This document shows, one piece after another, positions 18,309 through 33,028 of a stretch of 64,000 nucleotides of DNA. Location of the stretch: contig JBJKUS010000008.1 in the NCBI GenBank assembly GCA_045563025.1, positions 282,464 to 346,463 on the forward strand, written 5' to 3'. Positions within the stretch are counted from its first letter, which is position 1; the number at the start of each line of letters is the position of its first letter. The notes below the pieces were generated by a model. It was given only the letters and a program-made list of their open reading frames with translations, was not told the DNA's origin and did no database searches. The DNA is from Alphaproteobacteria bacterium (GTDB taxonomy: Bacteria > Pseudomonadota > Alphaproteobacteria > Methylaequorales > Methylaequoraceae). The position numbers and the translations under genes are program-made.

Positions 18309-18333
18309 CAAAATTTTTCCAAAAAATTACATT
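18305..18333 (+). promoter_or_regulatory. sigma70-type promoter of groESL
   Basis: TTGACA (18305-18310), 17 bp spacer, TACATT (18328-18333), abutting the CIRCE. Confidence 0.7.
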
Positions 18334-18358
18334 AGCACTCAATACTACTGAGTGCTAA
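18332..18358. promoter_or_regulatory. CIRCE element (HrcA operator)
   Basis: Perfect TTAGCACTC-N9-GAGTGCTAA upstream of groES. Confidence 0.97.
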
Positions 18359-18401
18359 CAAGGCTCGTGGTTAATTTGAATTGTCTAACAAAGGAGATTC
18401 T

Positions 18402-20412: not shown

Positions 20413-20445
20413 AAAACCCTCGGAGATTAATTCCCGAGGGTTTTT
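20413..20445. terminator. Bidirectional intrinsic terminator between groEL and the convergent DUF934 gene
   Basis: AAAACCCTCGG-agattaattc-CCGAGGGTTTTT. Confidence 0.85.
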
Positions 20446-20447
20446 AT

Positions 20448-20897
20448 CTAAGGTTGATAATACAAACCCTCGTCCATTTTAAAAAAATCAACCCAAAACT
20501 TCTCTTTTCCTTCTTCAATCTCGAATGAATCTACACCACATCTATTTAGAAAAACATATTGGTCAGGCAAAATATGACCTGACGCTCTTATTTCCCCATT
20601 GAATTTCCAATATTTCCTAAGTTTTTTTATCTCTGTAAATGGTCTACCATCTTTAAATGTAATAAAGTTAAATTGAATTAAACTAAAAAGCTCTATGTCA
20701 TCTTTTATTAAATCAATAGATTGATTAGAGTCTAAAATCACCCCAATATGTTTTTTTTTTTTCAGTGTTTTTTTATTTTCAATCCAAAATTTTATGAAAA
20801 AAATTATTTTCGAAGATTTCTTTATCTCAGAGTCGTTATCAATAAAAAAATATTCATTTTTAGAAACTTTAGCTTTGTTAAGAATTATTTTTTTCAT
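20448..20897 (-). CDS. DUF934-family protein (sulfite reduction associated)
   Basis: FITFKDGRPF, FNGEIRASGHILPDQYVFLNRCGVDSF, YQP; follows cysI; start moved to ATG 20897. Confidence 0.85.
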   Translation of the reverse strand: MKKIILNKAKVSKNEYFFIDNDSEIKKSSKIIFFIKFWIENKKTLKKKKHIGVILDSNQSIDLIKDDIELFSLIQFNFITFKDGRPFTEIKKLRKYWKFNGEIRASGHILPDQYVFLNRCGVDSFEIEEGKEKFWVDFFKMDEGLYYQP

Positions 20898-25889: not shown

Positions 25890-26728
25890 AAGCTTATTAT
25901 CATCTTGAAAAGTTATCTGATATCTCGGATGATTACGACATATTTTTAATTGATCTGTGGGGAGTTATTCATAACGGAATAAGAATTTTTAAAAATGTTA
26001 AAAGCGTTCTTAAAAAACTAAAAGAAAAAAATAAATCAGTTTTCTTCATAACCAATGCTCCCAGGAGGTCTGATGTTATTCAACAACAATTAAATGATTT
26101 CGGAATAATGTCAGATTTATACAATAAAGTTATTTCTTCTGGAGAATTAAGTTGGTTATATATGAAAAAAAATTATAGAAATAAGAAATGTCTTATGATT
26201 GGACCACCTAGAGATAATCATCTTATTGAAGGTTTAGATCTAGATATAGTTGAGAAAGACTCGTTCGTTGATATAATCTTAAATACCGGACCTTGGGGCG
26301 ATCAGGACCGTCTAGAAAATTATACTGCTTTATTGCAGGATTTAGTTGCAATGAAACCAACAATGATTTGCTCTAACCCTGACAAAATAGTCGTACGAGG
26401 AGAAAAATTTATGATTTGCGCTGGTCTTCTTGCAGAATTTTATGAAAAAATTGGAGGCAAGGTAGAATATTTTGGTAAACCTTATGAAGAAATTTACAAA
26501 TATTGTTTTAAGTTCATAGATCAAAAAAATCCGAGAGTGCTAGTTATTGGTGATTCATTAGAAAATGATATAAAAGGTGCAAATAACTTAAAATTTGAAT
26601 CTGTATTAATTACAGATGGTATCCACAGGGAAGTAAATAATAATAACAATGTTGATAAACAAAAATTAGATGCTTTAATTAAAGCGAAAAATATATTTCC
26701 AAACTATTTTATGAAAGAACTTAACTAA
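25886..26728 (+). CDS. HAD-superfamily class IIA hydrolase (TIGR01459 type)
   Basis: [34 protein letters not shown]. Confidence 0.88.
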
Positions 26729-26739
26729 AGGGTATTAAA

Positions 26740-28860
26740 TTGTCTGATAGAGAATACAAAGAGTGGTTAAATTTAGCCAATAAAGAATTAAAAGAGAGAG
26801 AAATTGATGATCTCAAATGGAAAACACCTGAGGGAATTGAGGTAAAACCTCTTTACACTGAAAACGATTTAAAAAATATTAAACATAAAATAGGATTACC
26901 TGGCCTTCCTCCTTACACAAGAGGACCAAGAGCCACAATGTATGCAAATAGACCTTGGACGATCAGGCAGTACGCAGGATTTTCAACGGCAGAAGAATCC
27001 AACAAGTTCTATAAAGAGGGTTTGAAAAATGGAGTAATGGGTTTGTCGGTAGCTTTTGATCTAGCTACTCACAGAGGATACGACTCTGATCACCCAAGAG
27101 TTGTTGCTGATGTTGGAAATGCTGGTGTCGCCATTGATTCAGTCGAAGATATGAATACATTATTCAATGGAATCCCTCTTGAGAAAATGAGTGTTTCAAT
27201 GACAATGAATGGAGCTGTCATCCCAGTTTTGGCGTGTTTTATAGCTTCTGGATTGAATCAAGGTTGCCCCCTTGAAAAACTTACAGGTACAATACAAAAT
27301 GATATTCTAAAAGAATTTATGGTGAGAAATACTTTTATATTTCCACCCAAACCAAGTATGCGAATTGTAGCTGATATAATAGAATATACCTCCAAAAATA
27401 TGCCTAAGTTCAATTCAATCTCTATAAGTGGATATCATATGCAGGAAGCAGGGGCTAATCAAGTTCAGGAGTTAGCTTATACCCTTGCTGACGGTAAAGA
27501 ATATATTAATGCTGCTCTTAGGAGAGGTTTGGATATTGATGAATTTGCTCCTAGATTATCATTCTTTTGGTCAATTGGAATGAACTTTTTTATGGAAATA
27601 GCAAAAATGCGTGCAGCAAGATATATGTGGAGCGAAATTGTTAGCCAATTTAACCCTAAAAATAAGAAAAGCTTGGCACTTAGAACTCACTGTCAAACCT
27701 CAGGAGTTTCTTTGGTAGAACAAGATGCTTATAATAATATTGTGAGAACAACTATTGAGGCAATGGCAGCTGTTATGGGAGGAACTCAGTCTCTTCATAC
27801 TAATAGTTTTGATGAAGCACTAGCTTTACCGACGCCTTTTTCAGCAAGAATTGCTAGAAACACTCAACTTATTCTTGCTGAAGAGACTGGTATAAATAAT
27901 GTAATAGATCCACTCGCAGGCTCTTATTATCTAGAAAGTTTAACTTCAGAAATGATAAGTGAAGCAAATAAGTTGATAGATGAAATTGATGAGGTGGGGG
28001 GAATGGTAAAAGCGATTGAGATGGGTATTCCGAAGATGAGGATAGAGGAAAGTTCAGCAAAAAAACAAGCTCGTGTGGATTCAGAGGAAGAAATTGTTGT
28101 AGGTGTAAATAAATACAAACCTACAGAAAAACAGGATATTAATATATTATCTATTGATAATGATGAAGTAAGAACAAGACAAGTTAGCAATTTAAAAAAA
28201 CTAAAAGGGTCTAGAGATAACAAAGTAGTAAATAAATATTTAGATAAGATAGAGACTTCAGCAAAAGACGATTCACAGAACCTTCTTGAAATCTGTATAG
28301 AGGCTGCAAAAAACAAATGTACGGTAGGAGAAATGACATCGGCTATGGAAAAGGTTTTTGGAAGACATACATTATCCACTAAAACAATTAGTGGTATTTA
28401 CAGTAAAACGATTAAAAAAAGCGAGAAAATTAGTTCAATCAATGATCATATAGAAAAGTTTATCGAGAAAAATGGACGTCGCCCTAGAATGCTTGTAGTG
28501 AAAATGGGTCAAGATGGTCATGATAGAGGGGCAAAGCTTATAGCAACAGCATTCTCAGATTTAGGGTTTGATGTTGATGTCGGACCTTTATTCCAAACAC
28601 CAAGTGAAGCTGCAACTCAGGCGATAGAGAACGATGTTCATATAATAGGTGTTTCATCACTTGCAGCGGGTCATAAAACTTTGGTGCCGATTTTAATGGA
28701 AGCGCTTAAAGAAAATGATGCAAATTATATAAAAGTTATTTGTGGAGGTGTAATTCCACCACAAGATTATGACTTTTTAAAAAAGCTTGGAGTAAGCAAA
28801 GTTTTTGGTCCTGGAACAAATATTCCGGAAGCGGCTATTGAAATTATAAATATGCTTTAG
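26740..28860 (+). CDS. scpA: Methylmalonyl-CoA mutase (AdoCbl-dependent)
   Basis: [57 protein letters not shown]12-binding motif; TTG start. Confidence 0.97.
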
Positions 28861-28866
28861 TATATT
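28838..28866 (+). promoter_or_regulatory. Internal sigma70 promoter for HTH-meaB
   Basis: TTGAAA (28838-28843), 17 bp spacer, TATATT (28861-28866); the -35 box lies in the last codons of the mutase gene. Confidence 0.6.
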
Positions 28867-28886
28867 TAACCAGGTCGGTTAAATAT
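28862..28886. promoter_or_regulatory. Perfect inverted repeat, candidate operator
   Basis: ATATTTAACC-aggtc-GGTTAAATAT; fills the mutase-meaB spacer and overlaps the -10 box and the start codon. Confidence 0.7.
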
Positions 28887-30084
28887 GATCTTAAAAGAAT
28901 ACTTAAAATTTTGTGGTGTAACTAACAAAGATTTTGCAAAACGAATTGGAATTACTCCAGTATCTTTATCTCGTTATATAAGTGGAGAAAGATTACCTGA
29001 GAAAGAAATAATTCTAAAGATTTCCTCTCTAACTGATGGAGCAGTTAACCCAGATGACTTCTATTTCAAACCTAAAATAGATAATGATAACGAAAATATC
29101 AATTTAAACTCAATAAGTGAAATAGTAAAAAATATAAGAAACGGATCAAAAAAAGAACTTGCTAAAACTATAACACTTGTTGAATCAAAATTGAAAAAGC
29201 ATCAAGAATTGGTAAAAAAAATTTTTGAAAAGTTTAAAACCAACAATAAAACTATAAGAATTGGAGTAACGGGAGTTCCTGGAGTTGGAAAGTCAACTTT
29301 TATTGAATCTATAGGACTTAAATTAATTCAAAGGAACTTAAAAGTAGCTGTTCTTGCGATTGATCCATCATCAAAAGAAACAGGAGGTTCAATTTTAGGT
29401 GATAAAACTAGGATGGAAAAATTATCTGTTCATCCAAAAGCTTTTATACGACCATCTCCTAGTAGTGGTCACCTTGGAGGAGTTGCTAAGAAGACATATG
29501 AATCTATGTTATGTTTAGAAGAAGCAGGATATGATGTGATCTTTATTGAAACTATGGGCGTTGGACAAGCAGAAACTGCAGTACATGATATGGTAGATAT
29601 TTTTTTAGTACTTTTACTTCCATCAGGAGGAGATGAATTGCAAGGAATCAAAAAAGGTATTATAGAGCTTGCTGACCTGATAGTTGTTAATAAAGCAGAT
29701 AACGATCTTCAGAAAGCCGCTGAGATCACACAAAATGAGTATAAAACCGCACTTCATATTTCTGGAAAACCCAAAAATGGATTTGAGGTCGAAGTTTTAA
29801 TATGTTCATCTTTAAAGTCTAAAGGACTAGAAAAAATTTGGGATTATATTCAAGTTTTTATTAATAAAAAAAAAAAAAATCATACATTCTTTTCTAATAG
29901 ACAAAGTCAATTGAAAGAATGGATGTGGAATTCTATCCATCAAACTGTAAATGAAATGATAAATTCTGATTTGTCAAAAAATGAATTTATAAAAAAAATC
30001 CAATTAAAAGTAGATGATAAGAAATTGAGTGTTTTTAGGGCCACTCAGTTAATGTGTAATTTTCTACTAAAAAATAAATTTTAA
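28885..30084 (+). CDS. meaB: MeaB (ArgK/MMAA) mutase-associated GTPase with an N-terminal Cro/XRE-like HTH fusion
   Basis: aa 1-60 LKEYLK..GVTNKDFAKRIGITPVSLSRYISGERLP...TDGAVNPDDFY, then GVPGVGKST, DPSS, GGSILGDKTRM, ETMGVGQ, NKAD. Confidence 0.93.
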   Translation: MILKEYLKFCGVTNKDFAKRIGITPVSLSRYISGERLPEKEIILKISSLTDGAVNPDDFYFKPKIDNDNENINLNSISEIVKNIRNGSKKELAKTITLVESKLKKHQELVKKIFEKFKTNNKTIRIGVTGVPGVGKSTFIESIGLKLIQRNLKVAVLAIDPSSKETGGSILGDKTRMEKLSVHPKAFIRPSPSSGHLGGVAKKTYESMLCLEEAGYDVIFIETMGVGQAETAVHDMVDIFLVLLLPSGGDELQGIKKGIIELADLIVVNKADNDLQKAAEITQNEYKTALHISGKPKNGFEVEVLICSSLKSKGLEKIWDYIQVFINKKKKNHTFFSNRQSQLKEWMWNSIHQTVNEMINSDLSKNEFIKKIQLKVDDKKLSVFRATQLMCNFLLKNKF

Positions 30085-30124
30085 CTAAGTTGATTTTTTT
30101 TTAATTTTGATTTAAAAGACCATA

Positions 30125-30406
30125 ATGACCAAGAGATGTAACATAACTAATGTAAAACCAATGGTTGGAAACAATGTCAGCCATGCAGTTAATAAAACAA
30201 AAAGAAAATTTTTACCCAATCTTCACAACACATCCTTCTACTCTGAAATTTTGGGAAAAAAAATTAAAATGCAGGTAACTTCAAAAGGTATTAAGACTGT
30301 AGAAAAAAATGGCGGGATCGACAATTACATTCTAGGTCTTAAAAACTCTAAACTTAGTGTAGAAACACAAAAGTTAAAAAAAGCTATTTTAAAGGTTAAA
30401 GCTTAA
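30125..30406 (+). CDS. rpmB: 50S ribosomal protein L28
   Basis: GNNVSHAVNKTKRKFLPNL. Confidence 0.96.
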   Translation: MTKRCNITNVKPMVGNNVSHAVNKTKRKFLPNLHNTSFYSEILGKKIKMQVTSKGIKTVEKNGGIDNYILGLKNSKLSVETQKLKKAILKVKA

Positions 30407-32091
30407 CTTTTGCTATTTCCCAGAAGATTAGTAAGGTTACTGATAATAACATCACCAAGATTTTCTGCATCCTCAATTACAAATGCATTTTTGTAGTATT
30501 TTGATACATCATGTCCAATGCCTATAGCCATAAGTTTTATAGAGTTTGTTTTTTCAATATCATCTACGGTTTCTTTCAGGTGATTATCCAATATATCAGG
30601 TTGATTTGTAGATAAAGTTGAATCATCTACGGGTGCACCATCAGATATGACCATTAAAATTTTTTTTTTTTCTTTTCTTGTAATAAGCCTGTTATAAGCC
30701 CATTTTACAGCTTCTCCATCAATATTTTCTTTCAACAAACCGTCTTTGAGAATCAACCCAAGGTTATCTTTACAATTTTTCCAGAAAACATCGGCGTCTT
30801 TGTATATGATATGAAGAAGATCATTAAGTCTTCCCGGATTTTCAATTTTCCCAAATTTTTCCCATTTTTTCTTAGATTTTCCACCTTTCCATTCCCTTGT
30901 TGTAAAACCTAAGACCTCAACATTAACCTTGCACTTCTCTAGTACTTTTGTGATTATTTCAGTTGTAATAGCCGATGTAATTATTGGCTTTCCTCTCATA
31001 GAGCCTGAATTGTCTAGAAGTAAAGTAACAATGGTATTTTTTGAGTTATTTTCATTTTCAAATTTGAAAATTTGCGTATTTTTTGAATTAGCAACTAAAT
31101 TTGCAAGTCTTGATGAATCCAAATATCCTTCTTCTTGATCAAATTTCCATGAATTTATATTTAATGAACTAAACAATCTTTCTAATTTTTTTGCTAATTT
31201 ATTTATAAGTCTTTTGTTTTCAAGATATTCGTCATCAAATTTCTTTCTGAGTAATCTTAATTCATCTTTGGTTGCTAAATATTTAGCGTTTCTAGAGATA
31301 TCAAACTCTTTTGTATACGCTTTGTAGTGAGTTTTTGATATTTCTGTTATTTTTTTTGAAAGGCTAGGATTTAGATTATTATCAAAATCTTTTTTATTTT
31401 TTTTTCTCATTTCTTGAGAAAAAGGAATTTTCTTTTTTTCTTTTTTTTTTGATTCAACTTTGTCTGACTTTAATTGATCTTCATTATTTGAATTTTGAGT
31501 TTTATTTTCTGCAGCCTCATTTTTTATGTTTTTTAAAATTTTTTTTGCTTTTAATGAAAAAGTCTCCTGATCGTCTATAAGATCAAAGAGCTTTTTAATT
31601 TCGCTAAATTTAATCTGCGGAAAAATTTTTTTAAATTTAGCATAGTCAATTTTTTTTCTTTCGAGAAAGTTAATGATGCTTTTGAAAAAAAAATTTTTCT
31701 TTTTATCAATGTTAAAATCAAAAATAGATTCTGGATTTTTTAAACTTTGAGTAATATTAATTTTACAACCAACAAACTCCTCAAAACCAAATTTTAGACA
31801 CCTACAAGCATTTAATAATTCATAATATTGACTTTGTGTTTCATCGGATGGCAGATAAAACTCATAAATAGACCTGTCTTTATATCTTTCGTTGAGAGCT
31901 TTGAAATCATAAAAACCGCGGATTTTGTTAAACTCTATGCTATTTTCTAAAATTTGCTCATTTTCGCTTTTAGTAAAATCATCCGTTCTTATTGAGATTT
32001 TTTTTAACTTATTTTTTGATAGGGTACTTGCAACTATTTTTTGGTTACTGTAATCATTTTTTTCATTGCTTTTAGACAAGTTCTCTCCCAA
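30403..32091 (-). CDS. cobT: Cobaltochelatase subunit CobT (VWA domain)
   Basis: WKFDQEEG, LLLDNSGSMRGKPI, VLGFTT..WKGG, PGRLNDL, LLKENIDGEA, ISDGAPVDDST; N-terminal half strongly diverged. Confidence 0.9.
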   Translation of the reverse strand: MGENLSKSNEKNDYSNQKIVASTLSKNKLKKISIRTDDFTKSENEQILENSIEFNKIRGFYDFKALNERYKDRSIYEFYLPSDETQSQYYELLNACRCLKFGFEEFVGCKINITQSLKNPESIFDFNIDKKKNFFFKSIINFLERKKIDYAKFKKIFPQIKFSEIKKLFDLIDDQETFSLKAKKILKNIKNEAAENKTQNSNNEDQLKSDKVESKKKEKKKIPFSQEMRKKNKKDFDNNLNPSLSKKITEISKTHYKAYTKEFDISRNAKYLATKDELRLLRKKFDDEYLENKRLINKLAKKLERLFSSLNINSWKFDQEEGYLDSSRLANLVANSKNTQIFKFENENNSKNTIVTLLLDNSGSMRGKPIITSAITTEIITKVLEKCKVNVEVLGFTTREWKGGKSKKKWEKFGKIENPGRLNDLLHIIYKDADVFWKNCKDNLGLILKDGLLKENIDGEAVKWAYNRLITRKEKKKILMVISDGAPVDDSTLSTNQPDILDNHLKETVDDIEKTNSIKLMAIGIGHDVSKYYKNAFVIEDAENLGDVIISNLTNLLGNSKS

Positions 32092-33028
32092 AACACCTTT
32101 GATAAAATTCGTTTATAATTTTTTTATCATTTTCATCACATCTATTAAAAAAAGTAAGCTTAAATGCTGTATCGATATCATTAAATATATCTACATTTTG
32201 AGCCCAAATTATTGATGTTCGTGGAGACATAATTATTGATAGATCTGACATTTTAAATGCATTTCTAATTAGATTTGCTAACTTAACAATGGATTTGATT
32301 TCATCTTTTTTTTTCTTCGAAACTTTTTTGAACTTATTTTCTATAATCTTTTCTTCTGTCTCAGGTTCTAAAAAATTTAGTGTTGTAAAAACATTCCATC
32401 TATCAAGTTGACCTTGATTTAAGTTTTGTGTTCCATAGTATAGACCTGATTCATCTCCGGATCCAAGTGTATTACAAGTACCAAAAATTCTGAAGTAAGG
32501 ATTAGGTTTTAAAACTCTATTTTGGTCTAACAGAGTCAATTTGCCATCAGATTCTAAAAGTCTTTGTATTACAAACATTACGTCGGGTCTACCAGCATCG
32601 TACTCATCAAAAACAAGTGCTACAGGATTTTCTATAGACCAGGGAAGAAGTCCTTGTTTAAAAGTAGTTACTTGTTTTTGGTCTTTAATTATTATCGCGT
32701 CTTTACCCAATAAGTCAAATCTACTAATATGGCCATCAAGATTAATTCTAACACAGGGCCAATTTAATCTTGCCGCAATTTGTTCGATATGTGAGGATTT
32801 TCCTGTTCCATGTAGTCCTTGCACAAGTACTCTTTTGTTATATTTAAAACCCATTACTATGGATGTTGTCGTAACTTCATCAAAAACATACCCATGGTCT
32901 ATTTCTGGAACAAGTTCAGTTTTTTGAGAAAAATGAGGTACAGCTATCTTTTTTTTTATACCAAAAACTTCATCAGTATAAGAGATCGCGTCTAATTTTT
33001 TTAAATTATTGCTATCTTTATGTATCAT
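32072..33028 (-). CDS. cobS: Cobaltochelatase subunit CobS (AAA+)
   Basis: GLHGTGKSSHIEQIAARLNWPCVRINLD, FDEYDAGRPDVMFVIQR, MSPRT. Confidence 0.93.
   Translation of the reverse strand: MIHKDSNNLKKLDAISYTDEVFGIKKKIAVPHFSQKTELVPEIDHGYVFDEVTTTSIVMGFKYNKRVLVQGLHGTGKSSHIEQIAARLNWPCVRINLDGHISRFDLLGKDAIIIKDQKQVTTFKQGLLPWSIENPVALVFDEYDAGRPDVMFVIQRLLESDGKLTLLDQNRVLKPNPYFRIFGTCNTLGSGDESGLYYGTQNLNQGQLDRWNVFTTLNFLEPETEEKIIENKFKKVSKKKKDEIKSIVKLANLIRNAFKMSDLSIIMSPRTSIIWAQNVDIFNDIDTAFKLTFFNRCDENDKKIINEFYQRCFGRELV

Follow-up and report, generated by a model that had tools for sequence, protein, structure and literature searches.

MeaB/MMAA, whose human form is a disease gene, is the chaperone of the B12-dependent methylmalonyl-CoA mutase, and its GTPase activity gates the loading of cofactor onto that enzyme. 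Here we analyse a meaB gene that begins with a Cro/XRE-type helix-turn-helix (HTH) domain, located in a 64,000-nucleotide (nt) stretch of contig JBJKUS010000008.1 (hereafter, the window) from an alphaproteobacterium of the order Methylaequorales. Between this gene and the mutase gene ahead of it lies a 17-base-pair (bp) palindrome. We consider it probable that the dimeric chaperone places its two tethered HTH heads on the half-sites of this palindrome and directly represses its own promoter, a proposal in which DNA binding, repression and the start of transcription are all predicted from sequence comparison.

In the part of PMC11672702 on which we draw, characterised MeaB proteins are described solely as chaperones. 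The protein encoded here resembles them in its full-length match to the MeaB equivalog, its intact G motifs and the position of its gene directly after that of the mutase, and differs from them in an added N-terminal Cro-like HTH of 60 amino acids (aa) and a linker. IcmF and other mutase-MeaB fusions also join MeaB to another protein of the same system, but they connect the chaperone to its client, whereas the present fusion connects it to a DNA-binding domain; one locus in our comparisons (L151) is a mutase-MeaB open frame of 744 aa. A DNA-binding domain and a working metabolic protein share one chain in bifunctional enzyme-repressors, or trigger enzymes, such as BirA, PutA and NadR. RbkR is described as another in the portion of PMC5397151 used here. 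Trigger enzymes control genes of their own pathway, whereas in HTH-MeaB only its own gene is detectable as a target, and its partner is a GTPase chaperone rather than a catalytic enzyme. Stand-alone XRE-type repressors of the Cro/YdaS kind (the YdaS N-terminal domain, 8co2/8c7k; P22 c2; HigA) have the same fold and a palindromic site on their own promoter, but in HTH-MeaB dimerisation would presumably be supplied by the fused MeaB dimer and not by the HTH. An enzyme fused to its own repressor domain is already known; what is new here is that the partner is a chaperone, that the only target detected is the protein's own gene and that the module recurs on other proteins. No description of an HTH-MeaB fusion was found in the literature searched, subscription journals and supplementary files lying outside that search.

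The HTH-MeaB protein and its distribution

The window belongs to genome G000 (1.63 Mb, G+C about 30%), and its order is represented in our genome set by one family, 14 genera and 42 genomes of AT-rich marine alphaproteobacteria. An initial annotation, made from the letters of the window alone, had reported an in-frame HTH-MeaB open reading frame (ORF) with its motifs, a palindrome, promoter-like hexamers and the lack of a Shine-Dalgarno sequence, and on re-reading the sequence every detail of that description was correct. It had also named a Pfam check of the N-terminal region, and here HTH_3 is matched well above its gathering score: at aa 3-49 of the whole protein with an E value of 3.3e-9 (37.1 bits against a cut-off of 23), and with 2.1e-10 (40.9 bits, same cut-off) when the N-terminal part is scanned alone. 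The remainder of the chain matches Pfam MeaB (PF03308) at aa 92-359 (E 4.4e-95), the NCBIfam MeaB equivalog NF006958 at aa 74-394 (423.2 bits, cut-off 329) and TIGR00750 (305 bits, cut-off 240.75), with a match to NF045497 that is partial only. The nucleotide-binding motifs of G3E GTPases are a P-loop GxxGxGKST, ExxG and NKxD. All MeaB motifs are intact (GVPGVGKST at aa 130-138, DPSS, ETMGVGQ at 222-228 and NKAD at 269-272), and the nucleotide-binding ones are invariant or nearly so in 62 fusion sequences.

AlphaFold models the HTH as a compact five-helix fold (helices 3-10, 14-21, 25-33, 40-49 and 57-60, the second and third forming the HTH), with a predicted local distance difference test (pLDDT) score of 93.4 as an isolated domain and 87-93 within the whole protein. 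The predicted recognition helix is aa 25-33 (PVSLSRYIS). In the whole-protein model, pLDDT falls below 50 at aa 64-70 of the linker, and the MeaB part of this monomer model has C-terminal helices at 334-396. Foldseek placed the HTH at template modelling (TM) scores of 0.70-0.77 to the XRE domains of YdaS, P22 c2, HigA and SinR, including the YdaS N-terminal domain (0.76) and P22 c2 on its operator (0.73), with HigA on DNA also among the fold neighbours; all E values were 7.5e-3 or weaker, as expected with a 66-residue query. A homodimer prediction with two copies of aa 1-66 scored 0.07, which counts neither way.

The fusion is real, as had been claimed, and conserved: besides the domain matches, the open frames are intact in 33 genomes. 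In a search of 5.8 billion proteins, the best 120 matches listed are 373-401 aa long and cover 91-100% of the query; 30 of these carry a precomputed PF01381 label, and the unlabelled ones share the same conserved N-terminus. Source databases label these fusion proteins plain MeaB. Within the order, the gene is present in 34 of the 42 genomes at an E value of at most 1e-50, the eight genomes without it being 54-89% complete, and the HTH stands at the N-terminus of all 33 complete meaB genes found by protein search. Conversely, aa 1-70 match 20 proteins in the size range 219-699 aa, and every one of them is an HTH-MeaB. Outside the order, protein matches start at query residues 66-84 (L021-L029), that is, they have no HTH. 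No independent HTH-MeaB fusion was found among 80 loci from a contig scan, which yielded one fusion, of the same order, and which unrelated HTH types would escape. Several longer N-terminal extensions on MeaB, considered as further fusions, turned out to lack an HTH, one being a mutase-MeaB fusion.

Sequence conservation across the 62 fusion proteins points to strong purifying selection on the HTH. This domain has a mean pairwise identity of 0.65, compared with 0.27 for the linker (aa 61-86), 0.76 for the MeaB core and 0.44 for the C-terminal part, and S27, R30 and Y31 of the predicted recognition helix, together with R36 just beyond it, are invariant. RNA-library contigs from four runs cover the joint between HTH and MeaB in three, with no indel listed there. 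At 29808-30095 none of the four runs gives cover, which proves nothing; a run of 14 A at 29866-29879 in meaB encodes KKKK, and such runs are slippage-prone. Another MeaB/ArgK-like protein is encoded at G000:C4:269524-270330, a paralogue some 300 aa long with 33% identity that lacks the HTH and occurs in most genomes of the order.

A palindrome and a putative promoter between mutase and meaB

Conservation of the palindrome was counted only over loci found by protein search, the motif having played no part in selecting them. TTAACC-N5-GGTTAA precedes the fused gene in all 33 genomes within two mismatches and is exact in 27. Four loci have a single mismatch (TTAGCC once, TTATCC twice, GGTTAT once) and two have a symmetric pair (ATAACC...GGTTAT). 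The 5-nt spacing and the GGTTA are invariant, and the distance to the ATG is 1-8 nt. In a set of 32 sequences that was partly chosen by motif, the three central spacer bases vary freely; of the outer two, -2 is a purine and +2 a pyrimidine in every sequence. This conservation pattern is typical of protein recognition. A variant in RNA run X4 fits it, in that C>T at 28876 strikes the last base of the spacer and leaves both arms unchanged. At the window locus the repeat extends to a perfect 10-5-10 arrangement, with arms ATATTTAACC (28862-28871) and GGTTAAATAT (28877-28886) around aggtc (28872-28876).

Taken by itself, the palindrome is unremarkable within this AT-rich window, which contains 47 inverted repeats of at least 10 nt and in which the core pattern with up to two mismatches has one occurrence, against 0.8 expected by chance; its significance comes from cross-genome conservation. 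The exact palindrome occurs once in G000 and in 28 of the 42 genomes of the order, in 29 copies (one each in 27 genomes and two in G045, which has two gene copies). Each of the 29 has an HTH-meaB match starting 1-6 nt away, with none elsewhere in the 42 genomes, and a reversed-pattern control gave 0-2 matches per genome, in 10 of the 42. At one locus beyond the 33 complete genes (L056, G056:C24) the exact palindrome is kept and the HTH-meaB frame is broken at several places; either loss of the gene's function or indel errors in the assembly may account for this.

A palindrome conserved only with the fusion had been proposed as a test of the regulatory model, and the contrast is complete in the loci compared, with 33 of 33 fused genes having the site and no unfused one. 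In a second AT-rich order with unfused MeaB, none of eight loci has it within three mismatches. These controls, with a MeaB of 325 aa, share the mutase-meaB-rpmB-cobT/cobS-like synteny (27% G+C in L113), and their mutase-meaB spacer is an unconserved A/T-rich stretch. None of nine unfused meaB genes of high-GC alphaproteobacterial relatives has it either.

The same uniqueness bears on the scope of regulation. The initial annotation had suggested a wider B12/propionyl-CoA regulon, which the distribution of exact sites does not support, since every copy abuts HTH-meaB. Five sites with one mismatch exist in G000; the fifth breaks the invariant GG, and the other four are inside coding sequence, presumably of an HtrA-type protease-like protein, rpsD, a 574-aa ORF and rpsR, the names being our reading of the translations. 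As regards control of the protein's own pathway, the sole site detected in G000 and its relatives is therefore that of the HTH-meaB gene itself.

The palindrome had further been said to overlap a promoter, covering its -10 box, a predicted +1 near 28873 and the ATG, and comparison across the order backs this promoter. TTGAAA-17 nt-TATATT is the best promoter-like site in 26400-30500, with 10 of 12 positions matched, and its upstream hexamer falls within the end of the mutase gene, whose C-terminus is constant in length across the 33 genes. Seven positions ahead of the mutase stop, the Ile codon is ATT in 31 of 31 sequences, against an ATT use of 0.34-0.73 at five further conserved Ile columns within the final 70 codons and 0.55 in the genome; it is the only column with a single codon among the 49 conserved degenerate columns listed. 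The next codon, Glu, is GAA in 30 of 31. Retention of these two codons means that TTGAAA is kept. Seventeen nt beyond it, the hexamer directly after the mutase stop reads TAnnnT in 30 of 33 loci (T1 31/33, A2 32/33, T6 30/33). The stop codon itself is TGA in 23 relatives, TAG in six and TAA in four, where the 728 long ORFs of G000 use TAA 433 times, TGA 157 times (22%) and TAG 138 times, and a TGA stop followed by TAnnnT yields TGnTAnnnT at the junction. TGn before a -10 hexamer is the extended -10 form. Such conservation at synonymous sites supports a promoter inside the mutase 3' end.

From the mutase stop to the palindrome stem there are 2-5 nt. The predicted transcription start, about 28873 when 7 nt are counted from T6, coincides with the palindrome centre, and an A is found there in 23 of 32 sequences. 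Relative to this start, the palindrome would thus extend from about -8 to +8. One RNA run has a contig that begins at 28866, with no cover just before it, a weak hint given that contigs cannot show transcript starts. The absence of a Shine-Dalgarno sequence before HTH-meaB, true as first described, is nonetheless the rule in G000, where the frequency of G at -11 to -8 climbs merely from 0.12 to 0.19 over 652 starts.

The protein might instead bind the palindrome with no internal promoter present, acting purely as a roadblock to polymerase arriving from the mutase gene, so setting the MeaB:mutase ratio from a single transcript and possibly affecting rpmB downstream. The two genes are 24 nt apart in a tightly packed same-strand run, RNA contigs bridge their junction, and autoregulation of that type is known for LacI at O3, according to the part of PMC3711431 used here. 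The conserved TTGAAA codons and the TAnnnT after the stop are hard to explain without a promoter, however, and the contig beginning at 28866 also points, weakly, the other way. We regard this account as quite unlikely.

Relatives of the HTH domain on other proteins

Sequence relatives of the HTH are mostly free-standing proteins of 61-90 aa. Among 60 aligned sequences, the window HTH included, 56 match HTH_3 and 34 match YdaS_toxin, with P22_Cro matches also in the family. P0210, which has the same recognition helix, was searched against 401 alphaproteobacterial genomes and found a match in 24. Beyond the window's order there are 20 matching loci, some of them free-standing genes and others N-terminal fusions to a glutamine-synthetase (GS) catalytic domain, NAD(P)HX epimerase/dehydratase (Nnr), pyruvate dehydrogenase E1 alpha (PdhA) and a NarJ/TorD-like chaperone (Table 1). 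These sister fusions carry the same Cro-like subfamily at the N-terminus; they differ from HTH-MeaB in partner, arm sequence and lineage, and in being sporadic.

A perfect 6-N5-6 inverted repeat ends 0-10 nt before, or overlaps, the gene's own start at 7 of the 17 loci with a placeable start. Counting three loci of one genus once gives 5 of 15. About 0.48 are expected from the background rate of these loci. The arms differ with different recognition helices (TCTACC, TTACCC, GTATCC, AGGTAC), and identical helices go with identical arms (GTATCC) despite differing spacers. A perfect or near 6-N5-6 palindrome of its own precedes the start of each of the HTH-GS-like, HTH-PdhA and HTH-Nnr genes, and the HTH-NarJ/TorD-like locus has merely a one-mismatch repeat 19 nt upstream. 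Two HTH-PdhA genes with 81% identity retain an identical 17-nt TTATCCATTTTGTATAA amid diverged flanks. Read by eye, the relatives have their palindromes in promoter spacers, with a -35-like hexamer on one side and a -10-like one on the other. An HTH of this type paired with a 17-bp palindrome at the start of its own gene is found again, on present sequence comparisons, where translational coupling cannot be invoked, because the palindrome of L165 is more than 100 nt from the upstream gene and that of L168 apparently faces a divergent neighbour, as the raw ORF listing suggests.

The HTH-GS-like gene comes from an order comprising one genome. HTH-PdhA is sporadic, the HTH being present in only 3 of the 80 PdhA-bearing genomes of its order, and one of the three uses a different HTH subfamily. 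That gene (L209 in G463) has an open frame of 458 aa with a different N-terminal XRE-type HTH, which suggests that HTH-PdhA fusions originated repeatedly within the order.

These relatives also bear on the idea that the palindrome before meaB is the site of a different regulator, the MeaB HTH being degenerate or protein-binding. We consider this extremely improbable: the HTH is strongly selected with invariant recognition-helix residues, the site is unique and goes with the fusion in every case, and other lineages show the same combination of HTH and palindrome with different arms.

Table 1. Features of the mutase-meaB junction in window coordinates, and loci of the sister fusions
Feature	Position or locus	Strand	Basis
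Methylmalonyl-CoA mutase, 706 aa, C-terminal B12-binding domain	26740-28860	+	Pfam MM_CoA_mutase E 1.6e-233; B12-binding E 6.9e-17
-35-like hexamer TTGAAA, within mutase codons Ile-Glu-Ile (ATT GAA A..)	28838-28843	+	Promoter scan; codon conservation
Mutase stop codon TAG (28858-28860), then immediately -10-like hexamer TATATT (28861-28866)	28858-28866	+	Sequence; relatives
Spacer between mutase and meaB, 24 nt	28861-28884		
Core 17-bp palindrome TTAACC-aggtc-GGTTAA, proposed operator	28866-28882		Conservation across genomes
Extended perfect 10-5-10 inverted repeat	28862-28886		Sequence
HTH-meaB ORF, 399 aa, ATG at 28885	28885-30084	+	
Cro/XRE-type HTH domain, aa 1-60	28885-29064	+	Pfam HTH_3, AlphaFold, Foldseek
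Asn/Asp-rich flexible linker, aa 61-73	29065-29103	+	pLDDT, low identity
Complete MeaB G3E GTPase, aa 74-399 and stop; P-loop 29272-29298, NKAD 29689-29700	29104-30084	+	NF006958, PF03308
HTH fused to glutamine-synthetase catalytic domain	L165		
HTH fused to NAD(P)HX epimerase/dehydratase (Nnr)	L178		
HTH fused to pyruvate dehydrogenase E1 alpha (PdhA)	L182		
HTH fused to NarJ/TorD-like chaperone	L184		

Elsewhere in the window and genome, CobT-like (von Willebrand factor A) and AAA_5 (CobS-like) genes at 30403-33028 on the minus strand adjoin the mutase-meaB-rpmB block, and a PduO-type adenosyltransferase is encoded at G000:C4:26744-27223. An inverted repeat at 18332-18358 (arms TTAGCACTCAATA and TACTGAGTGCTAA, 92% complementary) lies directly upstream of groES at 18381 and resembles the CIRCE/HrcA operator. 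Directly after the end of groEL (20365), G+C-rich inverted repeats at 20413-20472 (AAAACCCTCGGAGATT and AATTCCCGAGGGTTTT, with a second pair) are terminator-like.

Probable self-repression, possible RNA-level control and wider meaning

Several observations weigh against self-repression at the DNA level. The promoter scan returned 17 sites where shuffles give 17.6, and by itself it proves nothing. Because the fusion and the palindrome both originated in the same lineage, finding them together counts as one evolutionary event. In read-through mRNA the palindrome folds into a hairpin, with the AU of the start codon included (-10.1 kcal/mol at the window locus), and the 33 fusion loci average -7.9 kcal/mol (range -4.7 to -13.4, z -2.6), against -1.2 kcal/mol (z +0.66) at eight control junctions without the fusion. 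Flanking the core, the symmetric positions ±9 covary: 20 of 33 loci have Watson-Crick pairs there against 10.4 expected, a count reached by none of 1000 shuffles, and TA, AT, GC and CG are all present. Weaker excesses are found at ±10 (21 against 14.7) and ±11 (19 against 14.4); these shuffle tests take no account of relatedness. Such flank covariation is what RNA base pairing or quasi-palindrome correction would predict, and not what a protein ignoring those bases would. Template-switch correction of quasi-palindromes during replication could yield symmetric flanks around a protein-selected core. RNA-library contigs bridge the mutase-meaB junction in two of the four runs, both from one study and with DNA carry-over possible; read-through transcripts containing the whole hairpin therefore probably exist. 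An Rfam scan of 28600-29100 found nothing in the spacer, all matches being far below gathering scores.

These data invite a reading in which the palindrome is an mRNA hairpin only, hiding the meaB start until it is melted by the ribosome terminating on the mutase, such that MeaB is made with mutase only and the HTH has another target or none. Beyond the covarying flanks and the bridging contigs, it can draw on the presence of hairpins at all 33 loci, with the AUG inside the stem at the window locus, on the failure of the controls to fold, on the tightly held distances to stop and ATG, and on the coincidence of the right-arm GG with the weak Shine-Dalgarno-like enrichment of G. A stem requires pairing rather than a fixed sequence, yet TTAACC/GGTTAA is near-invariant across genera with about 50% protein identity, and neighbouring synonymous sites vary widely, unlike the core. 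Within the core, TTATCC produces a U-U mismatch in 2 of the 33 loci, and there is one compensatory change only, in two loci of one genus. The reading also leaves unexplained the conserved intact recognition helix, the synonymous-site promoter footprint just upstream and the 6-N5-6 palindromes before HTH relatives that have no upstream coupled gene, and it leaves the HTH without a target, as no other conserved site turned up in G000 or the 42 genomes. As the whole explanation we think the hairpin unlikely; coupling of meaB to mutase translation through it is still a contender, or may act as an additional layer of control.

A sequence-specific core with pairing-constrained flanks is also how a protein-recognised hairpin would look. 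The HTH heads could accordingly bind the RNA stem-loop instead of DNA and repress meaB translation autogenously, as in ribosomal-protein operons, and XRE-type HTHs can contact RNA, EDF1 on the ribosome being among the sequence and fold neighbours. Against this, the nearest relatives are DNA-binding domains of the Cro, YdaS, c2 and HigA type, the 6-5-6 layout suits a dimer on B-DNA, and the relatives' palindromes sit in promoter-like spacers. Recognition of RNA by the HTH seems to us very improbable.

Self-repression at the promoter, the loop that the initial annotation had put forward, is consequently the best reading, because the fusion is conserved, the palindrome is found with the fusion only and it lies on a promoter that comparison supports. 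One part of the protein would be an ordinary MeaB GTPase chaperone serving the adjoining mutase, and the other a Cro-like HTH held by a flexible tether some 13 residues long. Since MeaB is a homodimer, each molecule would present two HTH heads, predicted to bind the half-sites of TTAACC-N5-GGTTAA; from centre to centre these half-sites are separated by 11 bp, or roughly one turn of the helix. The palindrome would sit just downstream of the promoter built into the mutase end and cover the predicted start and the 10-12-nt leader. Bound protein would block RNA polymerase at this internal promoter and probably also hinder read-through from the mutase gene. The cell would in this way limit synthesis of its own chaperone, by single-target negative autoregulation.

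A bolder extension, which we offer tentatively and hold to be doubtful, is that the HTH heads reach both half-sites in one conformation of the MeaB dimer only, such that client-free chaperone represses and mutase binding relieves, and that the HTH module is a portable self-regulation cassette for any oligomeric protein. The initial annotation had put forward mutase-free or GDP-state MeaB as a candidate for the repressing form. Gating of DNA binding by nucleotide or mutase state is plausible, because the MeaB dimer rearranges strongly between the guanosine diphosphate (GDP) form and the form with the nucleotide analogue GMPPCP bound to the mutase B12 domain, as described in the part of PMC11672702 considered here.

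MeaB/MMAA is well studied and is treated as a pure protein-protein machine, and a natural DNA-binding form would be unexpected. The system is simple, with one protein, one 17-bp site, one promoter and a built-in conformational switch, and it is suited to asking whether a chaperone reports its client load to transcription. If the conformation-gated reading is true, the chaperone would sense its own client and match its synthesis to mutase abundance or cofactor loading without a separate regulator. Streamlined marine genomes are commonly thought to be regulator-poor, and for them a regulator folded into the protein it regulates would be an economical solution. The occurrence of the HTH module on four other proteins, three of them with a palindrome near the start, suggests a more general and so far undescribed alphaproteobacterial route to self-limiting enzymes.

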